Below the pieces are notes generated by a model. It did no database searches, was not told the DNA's origin, and saw only the letters and a program-made list of their open reading frames with translations. From Bacteroidetes bacterium UBA4416 (GTDB lineage Bacteria; Bacteroidota; Bacteroidia; B-17B0; Aurantibacillaceae), in assembly GCA_002390745.1 (NCBI GenBank), contig DGQK01000023.1, positions 46,104 through 70,103 of the forward strand: a stretch of DNA of 24,000 bases. Direction: 5' to 3'. The stretch's first letter is position 1. Every line of letters starts with the position of its first letter. This document shows, piece after piece, positions 10,894 to 11,633 of the stretch. The position numbers were made by a program, and so were the translations under genes.

Positions 10894-11018
10894 ATCAGAA
10901 TGCCGTAGAGCCGGAATTCATCGTAACTATAACGATGGGGAAATGTTCTGTTTTGAAAGGAACAGCAAAAAATGCAAATCCCCGAACAAAATTTTCCGTA
11001 TCACCTGTCGCTTCTGAT
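10894..11018 (+). ncRNA. Y-RNA-like unit 0 (type a loop), no canonical T arm
   Basis: Outer stem ATCAGAA/TTCTGAT (7 bp); internal loop 5' TGCCGTAG, 3' CACCTGTCGC; inner helix AGCCGGAA/TTCCGTAT (6 of 8 paired). The interior has hairpin CATCGT-AACTATA-ACGATG and a long GGGGA...TCCCC arm. Confidence 0.55.
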
Positions 11019-11031
11019 ATAAACACACATC

Positions 11032-11124
11032 AAAGATGCCGTGAATAAGAACTGCTTCGTCTGGCCGATGCCGCAAGGCTAGGGGGTTCGAATCCCCCGC
11101 GCTTCTTATCAGTTATCGCTCTTT
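11032..11124 (+). ncRNA. Y-RNA-like unit 1 (type a loop) with T arm
   Basis: Outer AAAGA/TCTTT; loop 5' TGCCGTGA, 3' CAGTTATCGC; inner ATAAGAA/TTCTTAT. The interior contains T arm GGGGG-TTCGAAT-CCCCC. Confidence 0.6.
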
Positions 11125-11137
11125 TAATAAAAACAAA

Positions 11138-11195
11138 ACAATGCCGTATATAAGGAATACTTCGACCATTAGAAAAGGGCCTTATAGTTGATTGT
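11138..11195 (+). ncRNA. Y-RNA-like unit 2 (minimal, divergent 3' loop)
   Basis: Outer ACAA/TTGT (weak); 5' loop TGCCGTA; inner TATAAGG/CCTTATA; interior AATACTTCGACCATTAGAAAAGGG. Confidence 0.4.
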
Positions 11196-11205
11196 CTGTC
11201 ATATT

Positions 11206-11336
11206 AAAGCAGTGTCGTCTGCAAGAGATACTTCATTTAAACTATGTACGCCGGTTCGAATCCGGTTCACGCTTGCGTGATGGCTGAGAGGTTAAGCAAT
11301 AAACAGCAAGCGCTCTTGTGAAATATTACCTGTTTT
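11206..11336 (+). ncRNA. Y-RNA-like unit 3 with circularly permuted tRNA body (YrlA-like)
   Basis: Outer AAAGCAG/CTGTTTT; 5' loop TGTCGTCTG; inner CAAGAG/CTCTTG. The interior runs, in order, ATACTTCAT hairpin, T arm GCCGG-TTCGAAT-CCGGT, capped acceptor-like hairpin TCACGC-TT-GCGTGA, TG, and D-like arm GCT-GAGAGGTTA-AGC. Confidence 0.6.
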
Positions 11337-11344
11337 TTTAATCC

Positions 11345-11476
11345 TTGATGAGTGGCGTAGCGTAGTCATCCTTCGGTAGAGCGTCCCACGGGAAGGTTGC
11401 AGGTTCAAATCCTGTCTCTTTTGCCCCCGAAAAGAGTAGCTCATACAAACAGACTATGCGCCTGTTTCCTCATCAA
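11345..11476 (+). ncRNA. Y-RNA-like unit 4 (type b loop) with permuted tRNA body
   Basis: Outer TTGATGAG/CTCATCAA (8 bp); loop 5' TGGCGTA, 3' GCCTGTTTC; inner GCGTAGTC/GACTATGC (8 bp). The interior has T arm GCAGG-TTCAAAT-CCTGT, capped hairpin CTCTTTT-GCCCCCG-AAAAGAG, then TA-GCTC, which can pair with the upstream GAGC. Confidence 0.65.
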
Positions 11477-11483
11477 AATCCTT

Positions 11484-11633
11484 GAATGGTGTCGTAGAAA
11501 AGAGGTACTTCGACTTCTAATCGGGAGATTGCGGGTTCGAATCCCGTCAAGGCAGCAATTAATAACGCCAATTGCCTTGTAGCTGAAAATGGAAAAAGCG
11601 CCAAAACGTTCTCTTTTCGCCTGTTGCCCATTC
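11484..11633 (+). ncRNA. Y-RNA-like unit 5 (type b loop) with permuted tRNA body retaining an anticodon arm
   Basis: Outer GAATGG/CCATTC; loop 5' TGTCGTA, 3' GCCTGTTGC; inner GAAAAGAG/CTCTTTTC. The interior has GTAC, anticodon-like arm TTCGA-CTTCTAA-TCGGG, AGATT, T arm GCGGG-TTCGAAT-CCCGT, capped acceptor CAAGGCA...TGCCTTG, TA, and D arm GCT-GAAAATGGAAAA-AGC. Confidence 0.7.

Follow-up and report, generated by a model that had tools for sequence, protein, structure and literature searches.

Eight Y-RNA-like genes with a shared bulged-loop module downstream of rsr in a Bacteroidota RNA-repair island

Which small RNAs accompany the Ro60 ortholog Rsr in Bacteroidota, and are they Y RNAs? The question is raised by a 24,000-nucleotide (nt) stretch of Bacteroidetes bacterium UBA4416 (contig DGQK01000023.1, positions 46,104 to 70,103; hereafter the window), in which the rsr gene (9186-10703, + strand, 505 amino acids) is followed by a series of small structured units. 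An earlier reading of the letters alone, referred to here as the original prediction, had described these units as Y-RNA-like genes beside rsr. The identity of the neighboring gene was borne out by its Pfam TROVE domain (E 1.6e-30) together with a weaker match to the Ro60 vWA domain that stays below the Pfam cut-off (1.1e-05; 25.9 bits against 27.7 bits). We found eight units in the window, six at 10894-11634 and two at 14559-14708, all on the + strand. They were confirmed to be a genuine conserved structured RNA family adjoining rsr, and we regard it as likely that they are Y RNA genes and belong to a Bacteroidota-type variant of bacterial YrlA/Y RNAs.

All eight units follow a common plan, which consists of an outer stem, a bulged U, a G:C pair plus an N:N' pair, an asymmetric loop and an inner stem. 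The units were numbered in order as U1 (10894-11018), U2 (11032-11124), U3 (11135-11202), U4 (11206-11336), U5 (11345-11476), U6 (11483-11634), U7 (14559-14637) and U8 (14640-14708). U1 to U6 lie 191-931 nt and U7 and U8 3.9-4.0 kb downstream of rsr. Six units are therefore present as had been claimed, but not directly after rsr, because U1 begins 190 nt past the stop codon at 10703. The spacing between units, given before as 5-14 nt, comes to about 3-13 nt with the unit boundaries as redrawn here.

Every stem and loop sequence quoted in the original prediction was found where it had been placed in the window. The outer stems include ATCAGAA/TTCTGAT in U1, AAAGA/TCTTT in U2, TTGATGAG/CTCATCAA in U5 and GAATGG/CCATTC in U6, and the inner stems include ATAAGAA/TTCTTAT in U2, GCGTAGTC/GACTATGC in U5 and GAAAAGAG/CTCTTTTC in U6. 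The 5' loop strand TG(C/T/G)CGT is present in 8/8 units. For the 3' strand two types had been distinguished; type a (CACCTGTCGC, CAGTTATCGC and CAACTTTCGC) and type b (GCCTGTTTC, GCCTGTTGC and GCTTATTGC) describe six units well, but U3 (GTTGATTGT) and U4 (AAATATTAC) fit the division less well. In each of the eight units the G-N that follows the 5' U can pair with N'-C and leaves a bulged U, as had been proposed. In seven units the G is paired with C, in U3 with U, and the N:N' pair is C:G in five units and U:A, U:G and G:U once each.

When arms were swapped between units, the units' own arms paired at 50/56 positions (outer stem) and 54/56 positions (inner stem), compared to about 3.8/7 for foreign arms. 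Only 9 (outer) and 6 (inner) of 100,000 permutations reached the observed sum. Own arms thus pair far better than swapped ones, indicating that the helices are unit-specific. Single-sequence minimum-free-energy folds returned the plan in 7/8 units, with U3 as the weak one.

Relatives of the window Rsr were found in Bacteroidota genomes by protein search (580 in number), and a set of 80 Bacteroidota loci (L numbers below) was retrieved with the Rsr protein only. This set includes metagenome-assembled genomes of Chitinophagales (Rsr identity 73-81%) as well as Flavobacterium, Pedobacter, Chryseobacterium, Pontibacter and Sporocytophaga (64-70%). A structural descriptor detected 294 units within 5 kb after rsr, i.e., 0.79 per kb, compared to 0.025 per kb elsewhere on the rsr strand and 0.029 per kb on the opposite strand. 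A 5' signature defined by sequence only (TGNCGT, then 5-16 nt, then a CTTC box) gave 373 matches downstream of rsr and 9 elsewhere; while UGNCGU occurs 373 times downstream of rsr, every other variant of it stays near background. Among units found with this signature, where N:N' pairing was not demanded, N:N' was C:G in 142, U:A in 116 and U:G in 22, with about 80 mismatches.

The units of the related loci were aligned with MAFFT, without fitting to any structure, and folded with RNAalifold. The same plan was obtained for 37 short and for 63 long units, with compensatory changes in 15/16 and 25/27 pairs, respectively. In the long-unit alignment 92.8% of the cells were paired; shuffling lowered this share to 65.5%, and sliding of the partners to 50% or less. 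The covariation score was 0.704 against 0.229. A T arm (98% paired) and an acceptor-like helix (87% paired) also covary, and neither was part of the descriptor selection. The view that this is a real structured RNA family with covarying helices and conserved loop strands is thus supported, as both features were found in the orthologous loci.

As a criterion for membership the structural descriptor was rejected: it missed U1, with its longer loop, and U3, with its weak outer stem, and it gave a false match in a coding region at 21568. Therefore, covariance models were used for this purpose. Two models, R1 and R2, were built from the related loci alone and contained no sequence of the window. 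Together they recovered 8/8 window units, with best E values from 1e-7 to 3e-24. R2 scored highest for U6 (95.0 bits, E 3e-24), U4 (79.2 bits, E 6e-20), U5 (73.6 bits) and U1 (34.5 bits, E 1e-7), whereas R1 matched U6 and U4 only partially (12.6 and 8.7 bits) and U5 and U1 not at all at E≤10. R1 was the better model for U8 (72.3 bits, E 2e-18; R2 46.6 bits), U7 (60.1 bits, E 7e-15; R2 35.7 bits) and U3 (45.1 bits, E 1e-10; R2 33.9 bits), and U2 was recognized about equally by both (R1 39.0, R2 39.3 bits). With filters switched off, R2 gave no further full-length match in the 24 kb, indicating that the window holds exactly eight units.

At E≤1e-4, R2 yielded 207 + 195 = 402 matches in the 80 loci, and 402/402 were on the rsr strand. 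Apart from a few partial matches to the T arm, they lay downstream of rsr, and in nearly all loci the array begins just after this gene. Each locus holds 2-10 full-length units (mean 5.0). The largest arrays, with nine or ten units, are found in Chryseobacterium (L073, L078 and L079) and start 1-2 kb past rsr. The number of units in the window had been called unusually many. This holds against the characterized loci of Deinococcus, Salmonella and Mycobacterium, but not within the clade, where eight units are high but ordinary. For comparison, 355 YrlAs were counted in 276 genomes (Chen et al. 2014, PMC4201824).

The units are also conserved one by one. In L007, whose Rsr is 77% identical to that of the window, orthologs of U2 (L007:11802-11868, 87% identity), U4 (L007:12128-12254, 79%), U5 (73%) and U6 (L007:12413-12556, 80%) occur in the same order. 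Orthologs of U3 (L019:3896-3964, 78%) and U8 (L001:4466-4537, 82%) were found in other loci, and that of U1 likewise in a locus other than L007. Since identity of non-coding sequence is held class by class, the comparison indicates that the units are distinct conserved paralogs and not the product of a recent amplification.

What do these units carry between their inner stems? The original prediction had spoken of a variable interior, and this description fails for U4 to U6, which hold a tRNA-like domain of T arm, closed acceptor-like hairpin and D arm, and for U2, which holds a T arm. Between 11085 and 14769 the + strand has eight copies of the motif GGTTCRAATCC, compared to 0.05 expected, and four of them lie inside U2, U4, U5 and U6. 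These four units have a T stem-loop of the GGUUCGAAUCC type, which is absent from U1, U3, U7 and U8; across the family it is present in 164/294 units. The D arm has a canonical family consensus (UAGCUCAGUUGGUAGAGCA), is degenerate in U4 and U6, and in U5 has its stem split by the Rsr-type stem. The consensus of the long units reads, in its 5' half, outer stem, UGYCGUA, inner stem, (U/A)UACUUCG, small hairpin, GGUCG and T arm CnGGUUCGAnUCCnG; in its 3' half a variable, covarying closed hairpin is followed by the D arm, the 3' strand of the inner stem, GCUUUUURC and the outer stem. The parts thus come in the order V, T, AS, D, by which YrlA is defined, and this tRNA-like interior places the long units with the known YrlA class.

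The units differ in architecture. U4 consists of hairpin X, T arm, closed acceptor-like hairpin and D-like arm, and both U4 and U6 show the topology of YrlA, the Rsr-type stem taking the position of the anticodon stem. For the class of U5, the consensus fold of a 12-sequence alignment (A7) pairs an early GAGC with a late GCUC, and this stem encloses an anticodon-like arm, the T arm and the closed acceptor hairpin. The class is thus modeled as a cloverleaf in natural order, with the D loop opened and extended into the Rsr-type stem; we found no such D-loop-inserted arrangement described in the Y RNA literature cited here. U2, with only a T arm (GGGGGUUCGAAUCCCCC), is a relative of a conserved class of about 100-140 nt (..GCAAGGCUAU-CCGGUUCGACUCCGGCA..). 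U1, without a T arm, belongs to a class that comes first after rsr in many related loci. Its relatives carry a GAGGUGCAAAUCCUC hairpin, and an alignment with 25 units of this first-position class showed that U1 of the window is without the 5' half of that stem. U3, U7 and U8 are units of about 70 nt with a small hairpin only. From these predicted folds, the family appears to include both a D-loop-inserted tRNA mimic and minimal 70-nt forms.

An interior hairpin with a clear 7-nt loop was observed in 54/336 unique units, and 27 of these 54 loops show the anticodon-loop pattern Y-U-NNN-R-N, compared to 6.7% of controls. The triplets in such loops, which come after the UACUUC box, are varied (UUU, GUU, UCC and others). 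Hairpin X of U6 (11508-11524, loop CUUCUAA) and the interior hairpin of U8 (14663-14677, loop CUUUUAA) are examples. An interpretation of all interior hairpins as anticodon-arm mimics was rejected, as the pattern is limited to a subset. For this subset, the loops fit the idea that YrlA arose from tRNA dimers, as proposed by Sim and Wolin 2018 according to the account in bioRxiv 10.1101/312249.

The tRNA-like parts raise the question of whether the units could be leftovers of a decayed tRNA array, i.e., pseudogenes or dimer fragments without a function of their own. The units contain T arms, D arms and acceptor-like hairpins, genuine tRNA arrays lie in the same island, tRNA-like scraps are found at 11900-12000 and 14718-14780, and U1 and U3 look degraded. 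However, it is the part that is not tRNA-like (outer stem, UGNCGUA loop, inner stem and UACUUCG) that is most conserved and covaries across Bacteroidota orders, which amounts to purifying selection on the module. In addition, class and order of the units are kept between genomes, and all 402 R2 matches fall on one strand beside one gene. We therefore consider it very unlikely that the units are mere remnants of tRNA genes.

If the units are Y RNAs, the conserved module should be the part that Rsr recognizes. In its modal form the outer stem has 7 base pairs (bp) and the inner stem 8 bp, the 5' loop strand is UGNCGU with a single A added, and the 3' strand measures 9 nt. Units with a 3' strand of this length, the most frequent one (161 units), have G at position 1 (76%), U at positions 4 (84%), 6 (98%) and 7 (80%), and C at position 9 (96%). 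The asymmetric loop can be written as 5'-CGUA opposite 3'-G-M-Y-U-N-U-U. The module also has the G:C pair and a covarying Y:R pair, and the U before the motif and the U after CG are essentially invariant in the family. After the inner stem there is a (U/A)UACUUCG box, and UUAC/AUAC-UUCG contains YUAY. CUUC is found at this place in 233/294 related units, compared to 3/71 controls. In the window, xUACUUC is present in U3, U4, U6, U7 and U8 (x = A, A, G, U and U), with the variants UUCAUC in U1, CUGCUUC in U2 and AUCCUUC in U5; only U7 and U8 fit YUAY strictly.

The published 5' motif of YrlA is GNCGAAN0-1G, which has been compared to GGUCCGA, the sequence that Xenopus Ro60 contacts (Chen et al. 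2014, PMC4201824), and a 2025 study of phage Ro60 places the CGAA motif in a stem-bulge-stem (PMC12135203). The original prediction had considered the loop to be unlike the metazoan Ro-binding helix. This is not supported, the loop being a variant of the known site: G-Y-C-G-U-A is one base away from the bacterial GNCGAAN0-1G, itself likened to metazoan GGUCCGA (PMC4201824). In addition, the 5' strand has a single bulged pyrimidine, which is reminiscent of the bulged helix in animal Y RNAs. The module would be what Rsr grips, chiefly via the 5' strand G-Y-C-G-U-A, and the conserved loop, already named as a candidate for the Rsr-binding module, is upheld as the best one.

How do the units compare to known Y RNAs? 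YrlA is a tRNA-mimicking Y RNA whose gene neighbors rsr in over 250 bacteria and phages (PMC4201824), and its tRNA-like domain has been crystallized (Wang et al. 2018, bioRxiv 10.1101/312249). The published marks of these RNAs are GNCGAA/CGAA in a stem-bulge-stem, a YUAY box, and the order V, T, AS, D, and the published setting is within 4 kb of rsr on the same strand, near tRNAs and Band-7 genes (PMC4201824; bioRxiv 10.1101/312249; PMC12135203). The window units resemble YrlA in lying at most 4 kb from rsr and on its strand, with tRNA genes and a Band-7 gene as neighbors, in closing their 5' and 3' ends into a stem-loop-stem with G-N-C-G on the 5' strand, in the YUAY box and, for U4 and U6, in the order of hairpin (V), T arm, closed acceptor-like hairpin and D arm. 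They differ in the motif (U-G-N-C-G-U-A instead of GNCGAAN0-1G), in the conservation of both loop strands and the bulged U, and in forming ordered arrays of 2-10 members of several architectures, half of the units being without a tRNA-like domain.

Shorter Ro60-bound RNAs that accompany a YrlA-type RNA beside rsr are known as YrlB (Salmonella and M. smegmatis) and Yrl1/Yrl2 (Thermus phage) (PMC12135203). U3, U7 and U8 hold the same structural role as these RNAs, whose stem-bulge-stem contains CGAA. Sequence similarity was not detected, however, and U3, U7 and U8 have CGUA, a length of about 70 nt and a small hairpin, which in some copies of the short units has an anticodon-loop-like 7-nt loop. 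Yrn1 of Deinococcus radiodurans and its neighboring small RNAs are comparable in that there are several small RNAs by rsr, both strands of the Ro-binding helix are recognizable, and tRNA-like parts are arranged otherwise than in YrlA, with an anticodon-like arm that U5 also keeps; unlike Yrn1, U5 has an Rsr-type stem that leaves from the D loop, and there is no Rfam or sequence match. With metazoan Y RNAs the units share a terminal stem, a single bulged 5' pyrimidine by a conserved G, an asymmetric internal loop, a second stem and a variable effector end. The metazoan GGUCCGA/UUGACC helix, in contrast, is absent from the units, their interiors are tRNA-like, and they come in operon arrays and not as single Pol III genes.

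Rfam at its gathering thresholds reported only tRNAs, both in the window and in seven related loci. Judged by their YrlA scores, given below, and by their anatomy, the long units are remote YrlA relatives missed by curated annotation, and the short units are not covered by it at all.

Several observations weigh against the assignment to Y RNAs. The published motif GNCGAAN0-1G is absent, since 8/8 units read G-N-C-G-U; the core is kept and position 5 is U instead of A, which is the main reason why we call the family a variant. Four of the eight units have no T arm and hence are not tRNA mimics. The Rfam YrlA model (RF02553, gathering score 69) gives 25.1 bits for U6 and 20.7 bits for an element near 11890, and in L003, the best relative tested, two long units reach 42.6 and 31.4 bits, still below 69. 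The Rfam Y_RNA model (RF00019) has no match at E≤10 in 10600-15000. U1 and U3 appear partly decayed: U1 has a longer loop and has lost the hairpin kept by its orthologs, and in the outer arm of U3 just 4/7 positions are able to pair. The alignments used for covariation were seeded by a descriptor that demanded pairing in the two module stems, so that the covariation figures of those stems are partly circular; the tests by arm swap, location and model transfer are not touched by this. Finally, a long-range stem that brackets U1 to U6, described below, is present in only some related loci. Even so, we hold to the assignment of the units to a Y RNA variant as the likely one.

The array is closely interwoven with tRNA genes. 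A tRNA-Lys(UUU) gene (11639-11712, + strand; Rfam tRNA 60.8 bits), 4 nt past U6, was the sole call of ARAGORN in the unit region. No unit reached the score of more than 29 bits set for a natural-order cloverleaf with the Rfam tRNA model (RF00005); U5 gave 20.0 bits. A tRNA-Lys(UUU) gene lies within or just past the array in nine loci (L001-L006, L008, L024 and L025), in most of them directly behind a U6-type unit, and L001 has six tRNA genes inside its array. Directly past U8, a fold of 63 nt (14718-14780, + strand) forms a small tRNA-like cloverleaf, in which GGAUAAA/UUUAUCC is the acceptor and a T arm is accompanied by a hairpin whose loop is UUUUUU; ARAGORN made no tRNA call there. A further tRNA-like composite at 11900-12000 (+ strand) is without the UGNCGU module and consists of a T arm, a CCC/GGG hairpin, a D arm, a second T arm and a further hairpin. 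Its part at 11934-11995 scores 29.4 bits with the Rfam tRNA model and has no anticodon arm. The YrlA match of 20.7 bits mentioned above belongs to it, R2 matches it partially, and L007 has an ortholog (L007:12772-12911).

U1 to U6 and tRNA-Lys are bracketed by an inverted repeat, the 23-nt 5' arm of which (10857-10879) is 96% complementary to the 3' arm (11718-11740; both given on the + strand). In L007 the corresponding arms (11767-11781 and 12610-12624) keep their pairing by three double changes, with one mismatch, and L005 has an unrelated 19-nt repeat at the equivalent position. As a universal feature the bracketing stem was rejected, because it is clear in the window, L007 and L005, while most loci show just matches of chance length. 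Repeats of a comparable kind occur in L016, L017, L026 and L027. The inverted repeat probably serves as a long-range stem for processing of the array precursor, like the stems that flank rRNAs. A direct repeat, CGTTCTTTGA, was seen on both flanks of the array (10858-10867 and 11744-11753), with both copies kept in L007, and a local hairpin possible at the second copy (GAACG-AATA-CGTTC) would compete with the long-range stem.

Bracketing repeats could also mark the array as a mobile or repeat element, either a cassette with terminal inverted repeats or copies like repetitive extragenic palindromes or miniature inverted-repeat transposable elements. The 23-bp inverted repeat around U1 to U6 and tRNA-Lys would suit a cassette, and similar arrays occur in contigs classed as viral. 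When IMG/VR was scanned with a 14-base 5' signature, 120 matching stretches were fetched, 8 of which adjoin an rsr homolog (37-59% identity). Most of the signature matches were rejected as single chance matches; the real ones lie next to rsr, with L139 and L157 in addition. Contigs classed as viral with the unit family beside rsr homologs are L095, L122, L139, L150, L156 and L170. Their units are located upstream of rsr or on both sides of it, L095 having arrays on both sides and L139 at least eight units. Yet the units are mutually different and found only at rsr loci, there is no adjacent transposase gene, and identical cassettes at unrelated sites with target-site duplications are absent from 1.5 Mb of loci. 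The changes in the flanking repeat are compensatory between orthologs and unrelated sequences stand there in other loci, which argues for selection on pairing and not for a transposase site. A mobile element is accordingly scarcely credible to us.

The dense packing of the units allows for another explanation, in which they are not free small RNAs but cis-acting elements for processing, stability or attenuation of a long operon transcript. The spacers are very short, no obvious promoters are seen between the units, and the long-range stem brackets the array. A scan for sigma-70-type promoters and terminators was uninformative (5 sites compared to 9.3 expected), as Bacteroidota promoters lie outside its model. 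A hairpin, CCCTCTG...CAGAGGG, follows immediately after rsr (10715-10741, 12 nt past the stop codon), with 93% conservation in L024; it could serve as a terminator or as a processing site that divides rsr from the array. Leaders and attenuators, however, are not built as five to ten different copies in tandem, most units have no following open reading frame, and the closed 5'/3' stem, the protein-type internal loop and the tRNA-like body match those of released Y RNAs (PMC4201824). A purely cis-acting role is thus highly improbable in our view. Overall, decayed tRNA arrays, cis-regulatory elements and mobile repeats suit the data poorly.

A second hairpin element (GCCAGGCUrUCAC..CGUGA..UCGAAGCC) is repeated in the window. 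One copy lies between rsr and U1 (10750-10800, dG -24.5, z -3.1), and a weaker one just upstream of the exonuclease gene described below (13812-13860). There was no match to its exact pattern in the 80 related loci.

Which genes surround the array? An RNA ligase gene (35-622) stands at the start of the window and is followed by an array of seven tRNA genes (884-1906; Leu-UAG twice, Gln-UUG, Ile-UAU, Arg-ACG, Phe-GAA and His-GUG). Ile-UAU is an uncommon tRNA in bacteria. Arrays that resemble this one occur upstream of rsr in L004, L005, L013, L016, L017, L025 and L078. Genes for an ATP-grasp protein, a HAD phosphatase and two radical-SAM proteins lie between the tRNA array and a divergent WYL/WCX regulator gene (7916-8932, - strand), which adjoins rsr. 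Downstream of U6 and tRNA-Lys there are genes for an SPFH/Band-7 protein (12340-13440, + strand; Pfam Band_7, 6e-30) and for an RNase T-family (DEDD) exonuclease (13926-14468, + strand; Pfam RNase_T, 2e-18); an S24-like protein is encoded in the window as well. RtcB (21115-22542) and RlaP (23151-23936) are encoded further on. With RtcB, RlaP, an RNA ligase, Band-7 and tRNA arrays around rsr, the window is an RNA-repair island. Rsr, YrlA, Band-7 proteins, tRNA-like RNAs and RtcB were linked earlier as RNA-repair systems, according to what bioRxiv 10.1101/312249 relates of Burroughs and Aravind 2016. By gene adjacency alone, the tRNA-Lys gene and the tRNA-like element at 11934-11995, upstream of Band-7 (12340) and of RtcB (21115), can be likened to the Band-7-associated tRNA locus; the tRNA here is a normal-looking tRNA-Lys(UUU), accompanied by an element without an anticodon arm. 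Given its place upstream of the Band-7 gene, the 11900-12000 composite may correspond to the tRNA-like RNA that the literature associates with Band-7.

Since so many RNA-handling proteins are encoded in the island, the main rival explanation is that the module is real and is read not by Rsr but by another of them, i.e., the WYL regulator, Band-7, the RNase T-type exonuclease or RtcB/RlaP. In one version of it, the RNAs or their fragments would be a signal or substrate of the repair system. U7 and U8 lie behind the exonuclease gene, 3.9 kb from rsr; YrlA-like and tRNA-like RNAs have been linked to Band-7 and RtcB genes, as far as bioRxiv 10.1101/312249 reports from Burroughs and Aravind 2016; and the rsr-rtcBA operon of Salmonella is regulated by damaged tRNA fragments (PMC7790460). 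On the other hand, the loci were gathered by rsr alone, and the arrays start right behind rsr in nearly all of them. Moreover, the units flank rsr in viral contigs even where these have little else in common, and the 5' strand is one base from the motif linked to Ro60 binding (PMC4201824, PMC12135203). We therefore consider recognition by another protein unlikely.

Taking the units as Y RNAs, we propose that the 5' and 3' ends of each RNA would close into the shared module of an outer stem of about 7 bp, bulged U, loop and inner stem of about 8 bp, which Rsr would hold through the G-Y-C-G-U-A strand. The second modules would then differ from RNA to RNA: U4 and U6 carry an L-shaped tRNA mimic, U5 the D-loop-inserted mimic, U2 only a T arm, U3, U7 and U8 a small hairpin, and U1 a different fold. 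Through these differing ends the RNAs could attract or block different partners. In Deinococcus, PNPase is joined to Rsr through a Y RNA tether. Candidate partners here would be PNPase, the RNase T-type exonuclease of the operon, which is thus a putative Y-RNA-tethered effector, and the tRNA-binding repair enzymes RtcB or RlaP. Because the spacers measure only about 3-13 nt and tRNA-Lys lies 4 nt past U6, the RNAs may be made as one precursor transcript, from which RNases, including those that process tRNAs, would release the single units. RNase P, in maturing tRNA-Lys, would at the same time liberate the 3' side of U6, and the 23-bp long-range stem around U1 to U6 and tRNA-Lys probably marks the precursor for processing.

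From this, a further reading can be put forward, which we hold tentatively and think may well not apply: that the Y RNAs of a Bacteroidota rsr locus are 5-10 different adaptors in a set order and not redundant copies, with one Rsr-docking module and differing second modules (an anticodon-stem-type or D-loop-inserted tRNA mimic, a lone T arm, or a minimal hairpin, in some copies with an anticodon-loop-like 7-nt loop). They would be produced along with spare tRNAs from a single precursor, which the long-range stem would hold together. In a bolder version, the tRNA-like and anticodon-loop-like modules would be decoys or sensors for tRNA-cutting toxins.

What does the family mean for the biology of Y RNAs? 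Studies of bacterial Y RNAs have so far covered few loci, each with one to a few Y RNAs. The Bacteroidota would add a whole phylum with a divergent docking motif, in which CGUA stands for CGAA, the loop strands are conserved and the bulged U is invariant. The one-base shift of the docking motif, the conservation of both loop strands, the several architectures and the ordered arrays among tRNA genes set the Bacteroidota family apart as a variant. Because the curated YrlA model misses the divergent motif, Y RNAs would be under-annotated. The D-loop-inserted mimic and the real tRNA genes among the units are relevant to the proposal that Y RNAs arose from tRNA dimers. A shared docking module side by side with differing effector modules would also be a natural experiment that separates Rsr binding from the effector role, and tractable hosts include Flavobacterium, Chryseobacterium and Pedobacter. 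If the rsr loci do encode a set of adaptors, a single Ro60 ring would be programmable for several partners or targets in a response to RNA damage under the adjacent WYL regulator.

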